Shown in pieces: positions 10,909 through 48,995 of a DNA stretch of 64,000 nt. The stretch's first letter is position 1. Each line of letters starts with the position of its first letter. The translations under genes and the position numbers were made by a program. The stretch is from a virus. The stretch lies in the IMG/VR virus record IMGVR_UViG_3300020182_001907. One strand, written 5' to 3'. A model generated the notes under the pieces. That model saw only the letters and a list, made by a program, of their open reading frames with translations, had not been told where the DNA came from and ran no database searches.

Positions 10909-11174
10909 ATCCCACTAAAGTATAAATTAACAGCATCCTGTTTGTGCTTAAAGTAAACAACCGTCTCTTCCATTAAGCCATCATACGCTATTGCGGTGTT
11001 TTCTTGCTCTATTTGCAATTGCCTATACCTACGTTTAAGTCGGTCATTACGTTTACGAGTAGTTATATTGTACTCTTTATAATTCCATGTAATACTAACA
11101 AACGCTTCCCAAGGACCAGGCGCAGTATAAGGATGCAATTGTAATGTTGCTATGTTATTATTATGGTTGTGCAT
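10905..11174 (-). CDS. Hypothetical protein
   Basis: ORF in minus-strand gene train. Confidence 0.55.
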   Translation of the reverse strand: MHNHNNNIATLQLHPYTAPGPWEAFVSITWNYKEYNITTRKRNDRLKRRYRQLQIEQENTAIAYDGLMEETVVYFKHKQDAVNLYFSGI

Positions 11175-11523
11175 CGTTCTCAGCAAAAATATTATCTAGT
11201 ATTGAGGCAGCTTCATAACGTATAAACGTATCCGCATCAGCAATGTCTAATAAGATTTCTATTTTTGTGATATTGTTTGGAACTCCAATCTGTGATAAAA
11301 TTTTATCTATTTCAGGCAGTAGAATATCGTTTCCTAATGCACCCTGATTAACTTTATATTTTTCACCTGTTGTTAAAGTTACAAAGATACTGTCCAACAA
11401 CTCTAGTGGTATTGATTGCTGATTATCATGTCCTGTGTTTAAAAACTCGTGCAATACAGACGTTGGATTTGATTTGCCTTTACTTAAAATAACAATATCG
11501 GGACCTTGTTGTTTATTTGACAT
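11161..11523 (-). CDS. Hypothetical protein
   Basis: ORF with AGGAG Shine-Dalgarno. Confidence 0.7.
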   Translation of the reverse strand: MSNKQQGPDIVILSKGKSNPTSVLHEFLNTGHDNQQSIPLELLDSIFVTLTTGEKYKVNQGALGNDILLPEIDKILSQIGVPNNITKIEILLDIADADTFIRYEAASILDNIFAENDAQP

Positions 11524-11549
11524 AAAACTACTCCTAGCTATATTATTAT

Positions 11550-12179
11550 TTAGCTAAGAGTAGTTTTTTTAGGACGTCCTGGACCTTTCTTTGGAACAAG
11601 CTCGGGATTTAATTCGTATGCTTGATTTATTTTTGCTTCTGCGTCCGCTAACATTGCTTCAGCATCTTCTTTCATTAACTGTGCTTGTACTAACAATCCT
11701 TCTGCAATATTACTATCGTCGATAGTTTCTACTTCCTGATTTGCTGTAGTTCCCTCAATGTCAGCAGTAGTGACACGAGTTTGTTGATCTTCTGGAAGGA
11801 TTCGGTTAGTTTTATGATTTTCTGATCGAGATTCTATCTTCCTAATTTCAGCATTAACTTCTGACAACATGATAGTTTGAGTAGGAGTAGGTTTTAGTAC
11901 TACTTGCGCTACTGGTACTTTTTTAATTTGTTTGTTATTATGCAACGAGTTTAATGCATTGTTACCATCAGTAAATGTTTTCCTTGCTAGTACTTGACTG
12001 ATGTCATTAGCCTCTTGACCTTCTGCACTTTGCACAAACATCATTAAGTCATCATGTGTTCTAGGATCAAGCTGGCCAGATTCTACTATTAAACAATTTT
12101 CTGGTTCGTTTGGAACTTCTCTATATAGCACAATACAAGGTCTATCTCCATATGCGCCCATGTGTTTCAAAACAGTCAT
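11550..12179 (-). CDS. Conserved phage hypothetical protein with C-terminal AT-hook-like motif
   Basis: GGAG SD; ends PKKGPGRPKKTTLS. Confidence 0.75.
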   Translation of the reverse strand: MTVLKHMGAYGDRPCIVLYREVPNEPENCLIVESGQLDPRTHDDLMMFVQSAEGQEANDISQVLARKTFTDGNNALNSLHNNKQIKKVPVAQVVLKPTPTQTIMLSEVNAEIRKIESRSENHKTNRILPEDQQTRVTTADIEGTTANQEVETIDDSNIAEGLLVQAQLMKEDAEAMLADAEAKINQAYELNPELVPKKGPGRPKKTTLS

Positions 12180-12466: not shown

Positions 12467-12733
12467 CTAGTGATATTTACTTTCTTTTATGACTTCAGGT
12501 CGTATTTTATGGCATAAATTAACAGTATTCTCTTTATCAATAACATTTTCAAAATAGATATAAGAATATCCAGTAGGGTCTACACGTACATGGTAAAAGC
12601 CTGTACTGTACTCATCCACAAAGTCTAATACTTCGTCCAGCATATCCTTTGTAAGGGTAATACGGTTACGAATTAGCGTAACAGCTAATTCGGTACCTGC
12701 CAACATAACAAACTCTGCCATATCAAGTTTCAT
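12467..12733 (-). CDS. Hypothetical protein
   Basis: ORF with ATGA overlap with the VWA gene. Confidence 0.65.
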   Translation of the reverse strand: MKLDMAEFVMLAGTELAVTLIRNRITLTKDMLDEVLDFVDEYSTGFYHVRVDPTGYSYIYFENVIDKENTVNLCHKIRPEVIKESKYH

Positions 12734-14088
12734 GATTCTCTCTCATAATGTACACTAGTACCAAAAGGTGCTTCAGGAGATTGCCCGTTATAGCCACCGT
12801 GTACAATAAACAGTGTCTCACAATAGTTTTCATCTCCCCAACTGTTCCAAGGGTATCCGTCAGTGAACATCACAAACAGTTTAGGATTGATACCCTGATC
12901 TTTCATGTAGTCCCAACAGCACATAAAGTCCGTACCGCCACCGCCCATAGATTCATATTCTAAAAATTCATCTATGTTATTTTCGTCAAAATCCTGAGGA
13001 TTGTGTACCTCAGTATCAAAACAAAACAAATGTATATTGAAGTTGGTATACTGATCCATGCAGCCTTGTGTCTCTGACAATATGTCTTGTAGCATATCCT
13101 GAGACATACTACCTGAAGTATCAATTGCAATTGCAATATCAATACTTTCATCATAGTCCATGCTGGGCAAGTAAAAGCCTGCATCAACTCCCTTACGGCT
13201 AGGACGTCTATACGTGTAGTCGCTCTTTACAGTGCTTTGTATTTTAGTAGGTAACATATCGCGCCAATTTAATTGAGGAGAAAGAAACTCGTTAATGAGC
13301 CTCCGAACACCACTGGGTAAATTGCCAGCATCCTGGCCACGTGCACTTTGCAATACAGTACTCTGTACTTCCTGACTGATTTGCTCTTTCTCTTCTTGGG
13401 TGTACCGAATAGGACCATTGGTACCATCATTGTTTCCAGTACCAGGAGCATCATCTTCCTCTCCAGCATCATTACCATCTAGATGCATATCAAAAGGTGA
13501 GTATTGTATTACTCTGCCATTCTCTTCTGCATCTGTGATCATCTCGTCATATAGTTCTTCTGACGTCTTACCACGAGCCTGATGATCGTATATAATTTGT
13601 ATACTTTCAATCTTTTTACCAATTCGAGCTTCAACCAAATCGCTATTTACAATCTTGTCGTTGGCAATGTTCCAGATGTCAGCTTGTCTTGTGGTGTTGT
13701 TAACGTAATCCACATACTGCTCATCTGTATCAAAATCCTTTCGATTCTTAGTGATCTCCCAGTCACGATTGCGTCTCCCCATATGATCATATACACAATG
13801 TAATACTTCGTGACCAAAGCCAAACTCGTTTTCCCCTTCGTGTTCGTTAAACATTGCAACTAAATTACGATTGTAGTAAAAGTTCTTGCCGTCTGTTGCA
13901 AGGGTAGGACACCAGCTTGTAGCATCTACTAGGTTAAGTCTGGTTGCTTGGTTGCCAAAGAACGGAGCACTCATTAAGAGTTTCACACGAGCTTTAATTA
14001 GGATATCTCGAATTTCTTCGCTAGATAAATCAGTTTCTGGGATATGAAAGCTGGGTTTTTTCTGGGCAGTAGTATCTTTAGTACTCAT
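12730..14088 (-). CDS. Metallopeptidase-VWA domain protein (DUF2201-like)
   Basis: TLATDG, HEVLH (HExxH), MIDAS DTSGSM, GGGGTDF and FTDG motifs. Confidence 0.9.
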   Translation of the reverse strand: MSTKDTTAQKKPSFHIPETDLSSEEIRDILIKARVKLLMSAPFFGNQATRLNLVDATSWCPTLATDGKNFYYNRNLVAMFNEHEGENEFGFGHEVLHCVYDHMGRRNRDWEITKNRKDFDTDEQYVDYVNNTTRQADIWNIANDKIVNSDLVEARIGKKIESIQIIYDHQARGKTSEELYDEMITDAEENGRVIQYSPFDMHLDGNDAGEEDDAPGTGNNDGTNGPIRYTQEEKEQISQEVQSTVLQSARGQDAGNLPSGVRRLINEFLSPQLNWRDMLPTKIQSTVKSDYTYRRPSRKGVDAGFYLPSMDYDESIDIAIAIDTSGSMSQDMLQDILSETQGCMDQYTNFNIHLFCFDTEVHNPQDFDENNIDEFLEYESMGGGGTDFMCCWDYMKDQGINPKLFVMFTDGYPWNSWGDENYCETLFIVHGGYNGQSPEAPFGTSVHYERES

Positions 14089-14119
14089 ATAAACTCCTAA
14101 TTTCTTAACCTACTCTTAT

Positions 14120-14164
14120 ATTATAGCAGATTTCACAGTATTGTCAAGCTCTAAGTGTTTGATT
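14120..14164 (-). promoter_or_regulatory. Sigma70-type early promoter TTGACA-N16-TATAAT (extended -10) with upstream IHF box
   Basis: -10 at 14120-14125, -35 at 14142-14147, AATCAAACACTTA at 14152-14164. Confidence 0.85.
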
Positions 14165-14174
14165 TAAAAGAGGA

Positions 14175-14233
14175 AATTAGTGCCCGGGCTGTAGGTAGGA
14201 GTAGGGAGTGTGTAGATTGCCCGGGCACCAATT
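14175..14233 (-). ncRNA. Stem-loop in the 3' UTR of the AAA gene: 15-bp stem, 29-nt C-rich anti-SD-like loop (terminator / putative sRNA)
   Basis: AATTGGTGCCCGGGC / GCCCGGGCACTAATT inverted repeat; loop AATCTACACACTCCCTACTCCTACCTACA. Confidence 0.55.
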
Positions 14234-14236
14234 AAA

Positions 14237-15349
14237 CTATACGATATACTTGGTATATCGCTCCGAAAAGACCTTGTATAAGTCTTTGTCAAGATCAGTT
14301 CGGATGTTGAACCGAATTTTGTAATCCTTCATAATGGTCTTGAAGAACAGGATTACTTGTTCGGGTTGAAAATTACTGTACGCAAATCGTACAGTGTTAT
14401 TAAAGAACTTCTTAAAGTCGCCCTTGATGCCATCTCGCTTGTAAATATTGTGGATTTCATAACTCAGTCCAACTACTAAGCTGGTCATTGCACTTACTTC
14501 GTTCTTAAGCTCTTTATCAATTGTAGTTACAGAACCGTCCAAGATGCTTTCTGGATTAGGTAAACGTCCTGCTGAACGTCTATGTTCCATAAACTTAGCA
14601 GCCATACCATCGCCTACTGAGCCAGCAATCTCTGCCTTACGCTCGTAATCAGGTGCAGCATCAAAGTCAGGATGCCACAAAGCGTCTGATACATCTACCC
14701 AACTACGTGGTGACGCCCATGCTTCGCTAGCACTCTTGGGGTCAAATGCAAACAAATCCTGTTTTGCAAAACTTAGATAACCAACTACATCAGGATGCAC
14801 TTCTTGATGGATGGCCCAGTCTTTCCAGTCTTCAAAGTCTACTACTAACTCAACATGTCGGAAACGATTAGCAAGGGGAGCAGGCATACGATATGTAACA
14901 CCTCTATCGCCCTGCCGGTTACCAGCCGCAACAATAACGACATTGTCTGGGAGGACATACTGACCAATACGACGATTCAGTATCAGCTGGTAACCGGCGG
15001 CTTGCACTGCTGGAGGTGCACTATTAAGTTCGTCTAAAAATAACACCACATTGTCATACTCTGAAGCTACTTCTGCGCTGGGCAGATCTGCTGGAGGGCT
15101 CCACTCCATAGTATTAGTGGACTCGTTTCTCCAAGCATAACCACGCAGGTCAGTTGGATCCATTAGTGCCAAACGGCAATCAATCAGTAGATTGTTACCA
15201 GGCATCACATCGTAGCAAATCTGGCTAACGATGTCTGACTTACCAATACCGGGAGGACCCCAGATGAACACTGGCTTTGGTTTGCGGGGATTTGTCATAG
15301 CACGATGAATAACGCCTACTGCTTGACTGGGTTTAACTGTAAGATCCAT
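14237..15349 (-). CDS. AAA+ ATPase (MoxR/dynein-related), partner of the VWA protein
   Basis: GPPGIGKS Walker A, LFLDELN Walker B, AAGNR, LANRF and SPRSW motifs. Confidence 0.92.
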   Translation of the reverse strand: MDLTVKPSQAVGVIHRAMTNPRKPKPVFIWGPPGIGKSDIVSQICYDVMPGNNLLIDCRLALMDPTDLRGYAWRNESTNTMEWSPPADLPSAEVASEYDNVVLFLDELNSAPPAVQAAGYQLILNRRIGQYVLPDNVVIVAAGNRQGDRGVTYRMPAPLANRFRHVELVVDFEDWKDWAIHQEVHPDVVGYLSFAKQDLFAFDPKSASEAWASPRSWVDVSDALWHPDFDAAPDYERKAEIAGSVGDGMAAKFMEHRRSAGRLPNPESILDGSVTTIDKELKNEVSAMTSLVVGLSYEIHNIYKRDGIKGDFKKFFNNTVRFAYSNFQPEQVILFFKTIMKDYKIRFNIRTDLDKDLYKVFSERYTKYIV

Positions 15350-15381
15350 AAACTACTCCTAATTTTTTAACCTACAATATA

Positions 15382-15409
15382 ATTATAGCACCTATTTGCT
15401 ATTTGTCAA
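15382..15409 (-). promoter_or_regulatory. Sigma70-type early promoter TTGACA-N16-TATAAT
   Basis: Perfect hexamers with TGC extended -10. Confidence 0.85.
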
Positions 15410-15788: not shown

Positions 15789-15833
15789 ATTATAGCAGGA
15801 ATACAGGATTTGTCAAGCTGTAAGTTATTGATT
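15789..15833 (-). promoter_or_regulatory. Sigma70-type early promoter (N16) with IHF box
   Basis: -10 at 15789-15794, -35 at 15811-15816, AATCAATAACTTA at 15821-15833. Confidence 0.85.
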
Positions 15834-15855: not shown

Positions 15856-15882
15856 AAAAAAAGCGGGCAATTGCCCGCTTTC
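15856..15882 (-). terminator. Rho-independent terminator
   Basis: AAAGCGGGCAATTGCCCGCTTT palindrome followed by a U-tract on the minus strand. Confidence 0.85.
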
Positions 15883-16228: not shown

Positions 16229-16256
16229 ATTATAGCAGGTCTTAGCTCTTTGTCAA
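16229..16256 (-). promoter_or_regulatory. Sigma70-type early promoter TTGACA-N16-TATAAT
   Basis: Perfect hexamers. Confidence 0.8.
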
Positions 16257-33619: not shown

Positions 33620-33648
33620 ATTATACTAGAAATCGAAGAATGTGTCAA
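33620..33648 (-). promoter_or_regulatory. Sigma70-type promoter TTGACA-N17-TATAAT overlapping the end of polB, 5 nt upstream of the next ATG
   Basis: Perfect hexamers. Confidence 0.65.
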
Positions 33649-36674: not shown

Positions 36675-36878
36675 TTATGTGCGTGTGTTTATATTGATAT
36701 TGTTAATTATAGCAGGATTTGTTGTGTTGTCAACTGAAACATCTAGATAATAGCTAATTTTAAATGCGGGCATCTGATCAAAACTTATTTGTTCCAATAT
36801 GTTACGATCAGTAATACGATTACCTTGCGGATCATACGCTACAAATTCATTACCTGTGCGATGAACTTCTATTCTCAT
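36675..36878 (-). CDS. Hypothetical protein
   Basis: ORF with TATAAATA 5 nt upstream. Confidence 0.6.
   Translation of the reverse strand: MRIEVHRTGNEFVAYDPQGNRITDRNILEQISFDQMPAFKISYYLDVSVDNTTNPAIINNININTRT
36706..36733 (-). promoter_or_regulatory. Sigma70-type early promoter TTGACA-N16-TATAAT for dsbA-polB, embedded in the upstream ORF
   Basis: Perfect hexamers with TGC extension. Confidence 0.8.
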
Positions 36879-44193: not shown

Positions 44194-44270
<77 letters not shown>

Positions 44271-44276
44271 AGTAGT

Positions 44277-44353
44277 TGGTGTCCCTAGAGGGATTCGAAC
44301 CCCCGTTTCCACCCTGAGATGGTGGCGTTCTCGCCCATGTAAACTATAGGGAC
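44277..44353 (-). tRNA. tRNA-Glu(CUC), atypical anticodon loop
   Basis: GTCCC acceptor; CCACC-AT-CTC-AG-GGTGG; short variable loop; CCA encoded. Confidence 0.8.
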
Positions 44354-44363
44354 ATTTCTGCAA

Positions 44364-44747
44364 CTACTGTGGTACGTTAGGTAGTTGCCTCCATACAGGA
44401 CCTTTTGTTCCAGCAGTAGAATAATTGTAACACCAGAAACTACCATCATTGCATTGAAACAAAATGTCAGTTGTTCCGTCAGGCATTTCGATTAATGTAT
44501 AATCCACAGCCATACGATTTGCATGCAAGTTTGATTCACGCTCATTGTGTTTCATTAATTGAAATTCTAGATTTTTCATCATTGAAAATAATTCTGTAAA
44601 ATCCTGTTGATTTGAGTCTTGTTTAACTACTGGATCTCCAATAGCTAGGTCTTTAACGGAAGAACTTGATCCTGTTGGTTGTTCGGATTGTTGTCCCAAC
44701 TCTACAAATTTTCCTAATTTTTTCTTTTCTTTATTAAATATATTCAT
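44364..44747 (-). CDS. Hypothetical protein within tRNA cluster
   Basis: AAGGA SD; C-terminal CNDGSFW...WRQLPNVPQ. Confidence 0.7.
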   Translation of the reverse strand: MNIFNKEKKKLGKFVELGQQSEQPTGSSSSVKDLAIGDPVVKQDSNQQDFTELFSMMKNLEFQLMKHNERESNLHANRMAVDYTLIEMPDGTTDILFQCNDGSFWCYNYSTAGTKGPVWRQLPNVPQ

Positions 44748-44781
44748 TAAATTTCCTTAAAACAAATTTTTATAAGGGTTT

Positions 44782-44857
44782 TGGCTCCCTGTCGTGGGCT
44801 CGAACCACGGACCCAATGATTAACAGTCATTTGCTCTACCAACTGAGCTAACAGGGA
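44782..44857 (-). tRNA. tRNA-Asn(GUU)
   Basis: Cloverleaf; AATGA-CT-GTT-AA-TCATT; G73-CCA. Confidence 0.95.
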
Positions 44858-44864
44858 ATTATCA

Positions 44865-44940
44865 TGGTGCCGCCACCAAGAGTCGAACTCGGGACCTACT
44901 GATTACAAATCAGTTGCTCTACCAACTGAGCTATAGCGGC
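44865..44940 (-). tRNA. tRNA-Thr(UGU)
   Basis: Cloverleaf; CTGAT-TT-TGT-AA-TCAG; CCA encoded. Confidence 0.95.
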
Positions 44941-44983
44941 ATATGTCTATTTAACCCTTTATGCTCCAGCAAACCAAAATTAA

Positions 44984-45020
44984 TGGTAACCGGAGGCGGA
45001 ATCGAACCGCCAAGGCCATT
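44984..45020 (-). repeat. Duplicated 3' end (37 bp, 2 mismatches) of tRNA-Leu(UAA)
   Basis: Matches 45224-45260. Confidence 0.9.
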
Positions 45021-45032
45021 TATTTCTCCGTA

Positions 45033-45109
45033 TGGTAGGACTGGGTGGAATCGAACCACCGTTCTCTGACTTATAAGATCAGTGCATGACACCACTCTGC
45101 TACAGTCCC
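45033..45109 (-). tRNA. tRNA-Ile(UAU)
   Basis: Cloverleaf; CTGAT-CT-TAT-AA-GTCAG; A73-CCA. Confidence 0.88.
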
Positions 45110-45116
45110 TTTTATT

Positions 45117-45193
45117 TGGTGGGCCCTGATGGACTCGAACCATCGACCTGCCGATTATGAGTCGGATGCTCTAACCAACTGAGCTAAGGGCCC
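45117..45193 (-). tRNA. tRNA-Ile2(CAU) (lysidine type; Met not excluded)
   Basis: CAT anticodon; GGGCCCTTAGCTCAG body with C4-G69 and C5-G68 as in ileX-type tRNAs. Confidence 0.85.
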
Positions 45194-45223
45194 TAATAGG
45201 TTATCTCTATTTTAATTATAGTT

Positions 45224-45311
45224 TGGTACCCGGAGGCGGACTCGAACCGCCAAGGCCATTACAGCCGGGGGATTTTAAGTCCCCTATGGTTACCAATTTC
45301 ATCATCCGGGC
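45224..45311 (-). tRNA. tRNA-Leu(UAA)
   Basis: GGGGA-CT-TAA-AA-TCCCC; long variable arm; CCA encoded. Confidence 0.93.
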
Positions 45312-48234: not shown

Positions 48235-48531
48235 TTAAGCTTTTTTGCTGTTGGGTTTAGTATATCCGTCTTTGGGTTTTGCAGTTCTAGCCATCTCGCT
48301 AGGTCCACGTAATATTCTATCTATGCGACCTTTTTCTACCATTGGGTGGTTTTTAATTACTTCTTGTACTGCTTCTAGTTCTTTTCTACGTTCTGGTTTA
48401 CAAAATCTAGATTGCTCGTTGACAACAATTTCAAATAGCTTATATAAATCTGCTATCGACAAACCAGTAACTAACCGGCTAGCTTCTCGCATATAATTTC
48501 GTTGATCTCGATCTTCAATTTTACCACGCAT
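48235..48531 (-). CDS. Hypothetical basic protein
   Basis: GGAG SD; own promoter. Confidence 0.7.
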   Translation of the reverse strand: MRGKIEDRDQRNYMREASRLVTGLSIADLYKLFEIVVNEQSRFCKPERRKELEAVQEVIKNHPMVEKGRIDRILRGPSEMARTAKPKDGYTKPNSKKA

Positions 48532-48604
48532 TTCTCTACTCCATCAATTAAAAAAACGTGCCGCCCATAGCAATAATTAGCAATTTTCGTACGGCACAAA
48601 ACTT

Positions 48605-48632
48605 ATTATAACAGATTTGGCTAAGATGTCAA
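48605..48632 (-). promoter_or_regulatory. Sigma70-type early promoter TTGACA-N16-TATAAT
   Basis: Perfect hexamers with TGT extension. Confidence 0.8.
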
Positions 48633-48950: not shown

Positions 48951-48995
48951 ATTATAGCAGGAATACAGTATTTGTCAAGCTGTAAGTTGTTGATT
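48951..48995 (-). promoter_or_regulatory. Sigma70-type early promoter (N16) with IHF box; near-copy of the 15789 promoter
   Basis: -10 at 48951-48956, -35 at 48973-48978, AATCAACAACTTA at 48983-48995. Confidence 0.85.

Follow-up and report, generated by a model that had tools for sequence, protein, structure and literature searches.

A large-loop hairpin behind a MoxR-like ATPase gene of an uncultured phage, with a loop complementary to the leader of the same mRNA

The ATPase locus and its 3′-UTR hairpin

The stretch of viral DNA analyzed here (the window; 64,000 nucleotides of IMG/VR record IMGVR_UViG_3300020182_001907) encodes a T4-type polymerase, baseplate genes, and 7 tRNAs, with the cluster of seven tRNA genes lying on the minus strand (44197-45311). 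A megablast search for cultured phage relatives against 50,697 records returned no close DNA match. The polymerase shared 44-46% identity with its counterparts in Phosso, Atu_ph07, and Vibrio phage 2.275.O, and the best cultured match of the ATPase described below was that of PA5oct, with 45% amino-acid identity. Given the distance of these matches, the window therefore represents an uncultured large myovirus.

The locus under study comprises two minus-strand genes, each preceded by its own promoter. The upstream one (14237-15349) codes for a 370-aa AAA_5 (MoxR-like) ATPase (Pfam PF07728, E = 9e-7). Its sigma-70-type promoter (TTGACA-16-TATAAT, 15382-15409, minus) is perfect (12/12 match), carries TGC before the -10 hexamer, and is followed by an mRNA leader spanning 15350-15381 (minus). 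Within this leader, box 1 (UGUAGGU, 15376-15370) begins 6 nt past the -10 hexamer, hence at the predicted first bases of the mRNA; after an A-rich spacer comes box 2 (UAGGAGUAG, 15361-15353), which covers the Shine-Dalgarno region. The ATPase partner, referred to here as the VWA gene, is a DUF2201_N + DUF2201 gene (12730-14088, minus; PF13203, E = 4e-28; PF09967, E = 1e-13) for a putative metallopeptidase with a VWA-like domain. It has an equally perfect TTGACA-16-TATAAT promoter (14120-14147, minus) and a leader (14089-14119, minus) homologous to that of the ATPase, with GUAGGU at 14113-14108 and UAGGAGU at 14099-14093. The two leaders have in common a 21-nt motif, GTAGGTTAARAAATTAGGAGT, found nowhere else in the window. 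A further TTGACA in the 3′ end of the ATPase gene was rejected as an internal promoter: it encodes conserved L-D-K residues and has no -10 partner. The ATPase coding sequence also holds a perfect 13-nt inverted repeat (GCCGGTTACCAGC / GCTGGTAACCGGC, 14914-14926 and 14986-14998, 59 nt apart), which may be due to chance.

Perfect TTGACA-N16/17-TATAAT promoters occurred eight times in the window, against 0.1 expected. Besides the two above, all on the minus strand, they lie at 15789-15816, 16229-16256, 33620-33648, 36706-36733, 48605-48632, and 48951-48978. In most of them TGC precedes the -10 hexamer, and an upstream AAATCAAnAACTTAnAGC is common to three. To judge by these sites, the phage evidently has a group of very strong early promoters that are served by the sigma-70 holoenzyme of the host. 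Directly after the promoter at 48605-48632, on the minus strand, we have also observed an 8-bp GC-rich stem with a 26-nt loop followed by seven U (48557-48598). This hairpin precedes the ribosome-binding site of gene 48235-48531 and may be a 5′ attenuator or belong to a short RNA of ~60 nt.

The ATPase gene ends with a TAG stop codon at 14239-14237, and 3 nt later begins the hairpin that is the subject of this work (14233-14175, minus). It consists of a 5′ arm (AAUUGGUGCCCGGGC, 14233-14219), a 29-nt loop devoid of G (14218-14190) in which CUAC is present 3 or 4 times, and a 3′ arm (GCCCGGGCACUAAUU, 14189-14175), with one G-U among the 15 stem pairs. RNAfold predicted exactly this 15-bp hairpin, with the loop fully open and an MFE of -26.6 kcal/mol (z = -4.5; 0/200 shuffles as stable). 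A repeat search of the window listed it independently, as inverted repeat I6, and it is by far the strongest large-loop hairpin within the 64 kb. A 15-bp stem with a 29-nt loop directly after the ATPase stop had been proposed in an earlier reading of the sequence alone (the sequence-only reading); the sequence and RNAfold confirmed it, and homologous hairpins were present in relatives.

The stem is followed by a U-rich tail (UCCUCUUUUAAAUC, 14161-14174, minus). Through it, the hairpin may double as a weak terminator in the window's phage, which is devoid of the separate terminator hairpin of its relatives (see below). Intrinsic terminators combine a short loop (~3-8 nt) with a GC-rich stem that leads straight into a U run; the loop here is 29 nt, and a terminator scan of the window made no call at the hairpin. 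Plain terminators elsewhere in the window have 4-nt loops (e.g., 15860-15881). The VWA promoter follows the hairpin directly, at 27 nt, with no clear terminator in between, so that the RNA 3′ end is uncertain in the window. An Rfam 15 scan of the window brought only tRNAs to the gathering threshold, and permissive Rfam scans of the element from the window and from a relative (L017) gave only sub-threshold, terminator-like matches. A coding role for the hairpin region on either strand was considered and rejected. The same applied to a rut (Rho loading) site, for which the loop is too short and which in relatives would have a hairpin immediately downstream, and to an antiterminator alternative pitting the hairpin against the terminator, whose arms are non-complementary.

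Occurrence and conservation of the hairpin in relatives

A profile-based scan of IMG/VR identified ATPase homologs at 35 loci, with 44-68% identity; a metagenome protein scan gave only 3 loci, all distant. A large-loop hairpin was found 3-25 nt after the ATPase stop at every locus with at least 49% identity and the 3′ end present, two further loci of that identity falling outside the count as they end before the hairpin position. An exact DNA search with the commonest loop matched 34 contigs. The upstream ORF was a 368-370-aa ATPase gene in all 30 that have a complete ORF, and the three readable truncated ORFs were ATPase fragments. The hairpin is present after the ATPase gene in about 35 distinct contigs from uncultured phages. 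When five long records were scanned with a covariance model, among them a 250-kb contig judged 66% complete, each was found to contain a single copy. The sequence-only reading had suggested looking for the element downstream of homologous AAA genes, and there it was found across a single clade of the ATPase tree (support 91/89) that contains all carriers, L013 and L012 both included. The sister group of this clade (L028, L036, L039, and L041) had no element and only plain terminators, and the same was true of PA5oct, Phosso, and Vibrio 2.275.O.

Other searches were less productive. A blastn search of cultured phages with the element itself returned only chance, terminator-like matches. An exact IMG/VR search with the window's stem gave four unrelated matches, including a contig end contaminated with adapter. 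The IMG/VR matches of a loose pattern of three loop blocks were mostly due to chance and were filtered by their flanking stems. The group C covariance model, when run on the window, missed the window's own diverged copy and gave a weak match to an unrelated hairpin (11523-11570). As a side observation, positions 1530-1617 of L003 (IMGVR_UViG_3300028840_004475) are a contig end with tandem GGTGCCCT repeats followed by AGATCGGAAGAGCGTCGTGTAGGGAAAGAGTGT..., which we take to be Illumina adapter, i.e., an assembly artifact.

In the relatives with at least 49% identity, a second GC-rich hairpin directly follows the large-loop hairpin, the window's phage being the exception. In loop groups C and D, this second hairpin ends in a clear U run and is a canonical intrinsic terminator; L009 and groups B and E have a weak U run there or lack it. 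The position of the second hairpin indicates that the large-loop element is not itself the terminator, in agreement with the sequence-only reading, which had held that it is no plain terminator.

We have then examined how stem and loop vary. MAFFT misplaces the 3′ arms of the hairpins, and a gap-free subset and a covariance-model alignment were used instead. The stem sequences were wholly different among lineages (GGUGCUGGGU, CACUGGGC, CCUUGUGC, CUGUUACUG, and UUGCUCG). Nevertheless paired, they showed double-sided changes at 8 of the 11 stem pairs in the nine gap-free sequences, shuffles of which never attained the observed covariation score, and compensatory changes at 11/11 pairs in the covariance-model alignment of 27 distinct sequences. 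In the gap-free set, stem cells were paired in 90% of cases, compared to ~42% with the partners slid by 1-2 columns and 18-24% with a slide of three.

The loop behaved differently. A 24-nt loop core, CCUACCUAUGUUACUCCCUACCUA, was identical in 8/8 distinct loci that had been found through the protein, and hence free of loop ascertainment bias, while third-codon identity of the adjacent gene averaged 54% in these loci. Loss of loop conservation had been named in the sequence-only reading as evidence against it, and the loop proved to be conserved. The loops of the relatives are G-poor (0-2 G), with YUACUCC and CUACCUA as common motifs, and that of group C contains CCUACCUA as a direct repeat (two copies). 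A variable stem around an invariant loop is the signature predicted for a hairpin that exists to present its loop, and the hairpin is almost certainly a selected RNA element.

Many group C loci (L017/L163, L087, L162, L169, and others) also have a Shine-Dalgarno-like GGGAG(U/A) or GGAG just after the ATPase stop. The motif sits in the first 10-20 nt after the stop and is complementary to the CUCCC of the loop; in L017/L163, RNAfold favored the alternative pairing of the motif with this CUCCC. It may act as a local competitor or switch that would be covered by terminating ribosomes. In the window, no GGGAG(U/A) or GGAG motif was present after the stop.

Complementarity of the loop to mRNA leaders

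The last 15 nt of the window's loop (CUACUCCUACCUACA, 14204-14190, minus) are complementary to both boxes of the ATPase leader, pairing with UGUAGGU (15376-15370) and with AGGAGUAG (within 15361-15353). All 15 bases would be engaged, 7 of them with the predicted mRNA 5′ end and the other 8 with the Shine-Dalgarno region, with the 9-nt A-rich spacer of the leader bulging out unpaired in the predicted duplex. RNAduplex assigned -19.5 kcal/mol to this pairing, the best value among 84 putative translation starts of the window. The leader of gene 11161-11523 came second (-16.0 kcal/mol) and the VWA leader fourth (-14.8 kcal/mol). The sequence-only reading had given the coordinates of the hairpin and of both ATPase leader blocks exactly. 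It had also pointed to the VWA leader (GUAGGU...UAGGAGU, 14113-14093) and to the leader of gene 11161-11523 (UAGGAGUAG) as carrying the same targets; both sequences are present, and the three leaders it named rank 1, 2, and 4 of 84. As for the leader of gene 11161-11523, its Shine-Dalgarno sequence is locked against an upstream CUACUCUUAG in a 20-bp hairpin with a 4-nt loop (11524-11567, minus), so that this third target site is normally base-paired locally. The hairpin contains the stop of the preceding gene (11550) and looks like a device for translational coupling through ribosome-driven unfolding.

These energies have to be read with caution, as they leave out the topological strain of a 13-18-bp helix inside a closed 24-29-nt loop. 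RNAcofold energies were discarded, since loop-to-leader pairing together with the stem forms a pseudoknot that this program cannot represent. Against dinucleotide-shuffled loops, the own-leader match in the window reached p = 0.019, and 9% of composition-matched shuffled loops had a partner among the 84 leaders at -19.5 kcal/mol or better. When both strands were scanned in sliding windows, the ATPase leader came about 14th of 10,660 by raw duplex energy, most of the sites outscoring it being G/U-rich coding stretches. Within the window alone, then, the complementarity exceeds chance only moderately (p = ~0.02-0.09). It is the comparison with relatives, and not these window-only statistics, that gives the finding its strength.

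In every lineage, RNAduplex predicted a two-block loop-leader duplex (-15 to -25 kcal/mol) in which the 5′ box of the leader is bound by the 3′ part of the loop, and the Shine-Dalgarno region, together with the bases that follow it, by the middle of the loop. Around the Shine-Dalgarno, a leader with GGAGUAAC(AU) is matched by a loop with (AU)GUUACUCC, and GGAGUAG(UA) by (UA)CUACUCC. At the 5′ box, UUAGGUA is matched by UACCUAA, UGUAGGU by ACCUACA, and UAGUUAGG by CCUAACUG. Compensatory loop/leader changes are therefore visible between the predicted duplexes of the different loop types. When one representative was taken for each of the five loop types (clades), none of the 120 possible loop-leader assignments had a lower summed energy than the true one (p = 0.008, the smallest value possible in this test). 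For nine representatives, which are not independent of one another, the p value was 1e-4. The claim of the sequence-only reading that the loop is antisense to the Shine-Dalgarno and 5′ end of its own leader was thus upheld as a prediction in all lineages, and in a clade-specific form.

The fit was not uniformly good. The own leader was the best target among the neighboring genes in 21 of 29 distinct loci; it was weak in L018 (p = 0.29) and L026 (p = 0.10), and the L010 loop fitted the L009 leader better than that of L010. Few other leaders matched a loop as well as its own did (10/324). Other leaders that are promoter-proximal, i.e., directly behind a sigma-70-type promoter (n = 47), had a mean energy of -12.4 kcal/mol, compared to -7.8 kcal/mol with shuffled loops, whereas for internal leaders (n = 418) the means were -8.2 and -8.0 kcal/mol, respectively. 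Among the good other targets were the leaders of VWA and of a few small early genes. This is in line with the sequence-only reading, which had listed VWA and possibly other phage mRNAs as targets, with the specification that loops match promoter-proximal leaders and not internal ones. The target set appears to be small, as the extended motif GGAGUAAMWU occurred only nine times in the 250-kb contig (two for a reversed control).

Box 1 begins 6-11 nt past the -10 hexamer in the lineages compared, except in L167/L178. In these two, an insertion of ~45 nt separates the promoter from box 1, which thus lies ~45 nt from the 5′ end, and the 9-nt and 8-nt loop complements are kept. This retention argues that box 1 is more than a motif of the initial transcribed region.

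Relation to known systems and interpretation

In Firmicutes, RsaE/RoxS and RNAIII use unpaired C-rich hairpin loops to target G-rich ribosome-binding sites. Unlike the present element, they are encoded by sRNA genes of their own and have several loops and UCCC motifs. With the RsaE model, only a sub-threshold match was obtained, on the opposite strand and downstream of the hairpin (17 bits vs. a gathering score of 79). The C4 antisense RNA of phages P1 and P7 is part of the same transcript as its target and occludes a downstream ribosome-binding site through two short blocks. C4, however, lies upstream of its target in an immunity operon and is processed by RNase P, and the element described here has no Rfam match.

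Other parallels exist among 3′ UTRs. In icaR of Staphylococcus aureus, a C-rich 3′-UTR motif pairs with the Shine-Dalgarno region of its own mRNA and blocks initiation (PMC3868564). The present element is similar in that a 3′-UTR anti-Shine-Dalgarno sequence is complementary to the mRNA's own Shine-Dalgarno, here predicted in all hairpin-bearing lineages. In icaR, a single UCCCCUG motif in a bacterial 3′ UTR of >100 nt creates an RNase III substrate (PMC3868564), whereas here a short phage hairpin with a 24-29-nt loop would pair in two blocks, through predicted helices of 7-11 bp that are short for RNase III; the two have no sequence relationship. In Vibrio cholerae, RNase E cuts out the autoregulatory 3′-UTR-derived sRNAs OppZ and CarZ, which require Hfq, carry linear seeds, and provide negative feedback on the RNA level (PMC7398697). 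Like them, the element lies at an mRNA 3′ end and has a seed complementary to the start region of its own operon. OppZ and CarZ directly precede the terminator of their mRNA; for the element, a terminator hairpin follows within a few nt in groups C and D, the second hairpin of L009 and of groups B and E has at best a weak U run, and in the window only the U-rich tail is present. Unlike in OppZ/CarZ, the seed is in a hairpin loop, and the loop also matches other early leaders. In hbs of Bacillus subtilis, pairing of the 5′ and 3′ UTRs protects against RNase Y and stabilizes the mRNA (PMC5737220); the pairing of two ends of one mRNA is shared with the element, which differs in that the Shine-Dalgarno itself is covered. 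The sRNAs published for giant phages are 5′-UTR or intergenic (PMC11512511). Our literature search revealed, as far as we found, no description of a phage 3′ UTR that pairs with its own 5′ leader. The principle of a 3′-UTR anti-Shine-Dalgarno is thus already known, from a few bacterial genes; the hairpin-loop seed, the two-block pairing with 5′ end and Shine-Dalgarno, and the phage setting define a new, unrelated RNA family.

Four explanations other than antisense control were weighed. The hairpin could bind a protein or the ribosome, with the loop and its repeated CCUAC motifs as the site of an RNA-binding protein of phage or host (e.g., a factor for stability or processing) and the leader complementarity incidental. 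A loop core that is invariant over 24 nt while leaders vary would fit such a role, as would the direct repeats in the loop (CCUACCUA twice in group C, CUAC three to four times in the window), although the invariance could alternatively reflect another RNA partner. Protein binding leaves unexplained the clade-specific match to the own leader, the preference for promoter-proximal leaders seen in comparison with shuffled loops of the same composition, and the retention of both boxes after the L167 insertion, and we regard it as unlikely. It is rather improbable that the 5′-3′ pairing serves, as in hbs, to stabilize the mRNA by shielding it from 5′-end-dependent RNases, or that it aids re-initiation by terminating ribosomes through keeping the stop and start regions close to each other. 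Box 1 is indeed at or beside the predicted mRNA 5′ end and the hairpin begins 3-25 nt past the stop codon, but with the Shine-Dalgarno itself occupied by the second block, 30S binding should be impeded, and L167/L178 have kept box 1 despite its distance from the 5′ end.

The hairpin might also be no more than an odd terminator or a barrier to 3′ exonucleases, its loop being G-free just to stay unstructured and matching the leader by chance. This would be consistent with the GC-rich stem and following U-rich stretch of the window and with the modest window-only statistics. The relatives, however, have their separate downstream hairpin (a clear terminator in two loop groups), the loop is conserved in sequence and not in composition alone and covaries with the leaders, and the plain terminators of the window make do with 4-nt loops. 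The comparison with relatives has largely refuted this explanation, which we consider very unlikely. It is barely credible that the inverted repeat acts at the DNA level, as a cruciform or hairpin for replication, packaging, or recombination: the single copy in each of the five long genome records and the covariation of its arms would agree with this, but the absence of G from the mRNA-sense strand only would be an unexplained strand asymmetry, and so would the location between stop codon and terminator and the leader complementarity. None of the four explains a complementarity that is both clade-specific and specific for promoter-proximal leaders.

We therefore favor, as the probable function, a 3′-UTR anti-leader element that represses translation, either in cis (icaR-like) or as a 3′-derived sRNA (OppZ/CarZ-like). 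The stem would serve to present a G-poor loop that is unstructured and antisense to the leader of its own mRNA. This loop would bind two leader blocks, one at the very start of the transcript and one over the Shine-Dalgarno region, and thereby hide the ribosome-binding site and limit translation; it would also fit, less well, the similar leaders of a few genes with early promoters, including the VWA partner. That the element works by pairing with early leaders to control translation we likewise hold to be reasonably likely.

In the cis mode, the leader would remain free during synthesis of the 1.2-kb message and be captured once the 3′ end is made, which would cap the output per transcript. 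In the trans mode, a stable 3′ fragment of ~80-90 nt, composed of the hairpin and the terminator, would accumulate and exert feedback on its own leader and on similar ones. In most lineages, an AU-rich AGUUU(A/U)A stretch is found ahead of the stem; by the RNase E consensus, such a stretch is a candidate entry site, a hint that RNase E may enter here. Both modes are possible, and they are not mutually exclusive. We lean slightly towards the trans mode, or cis and trans together, and towards several targets, because the loop stays invariant while the leaders drift and use different loop parts. A more tentative proposal, which is possible but on balance doubtful, is that the hairpin is released together with the terminator as a small RNA of the phage and acts in trans on a small regulon of early transcripts, as an RNA-only timer that would end early-gene translation in a lineage of giant phages. 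The members of such a regulon would share a promoter-proximal leader with a 5′ box and an extended Shine-Dalgarno region. In T4, the counterpart in the shut-off of early messages is the RegB nuclease.

The element is a well-defined RNA motif with strong covariation support, a readable mechanism, and clear predicted targets. If confirmed, the proposed control would mean that phages dose or time early proteins through 3′-UTR antisense loops. It would provide a compact, portable anti-RBS module for synthetic control and, for these phages, a handle on when infection needs the MoxR-like ATPase and its VWA partner.
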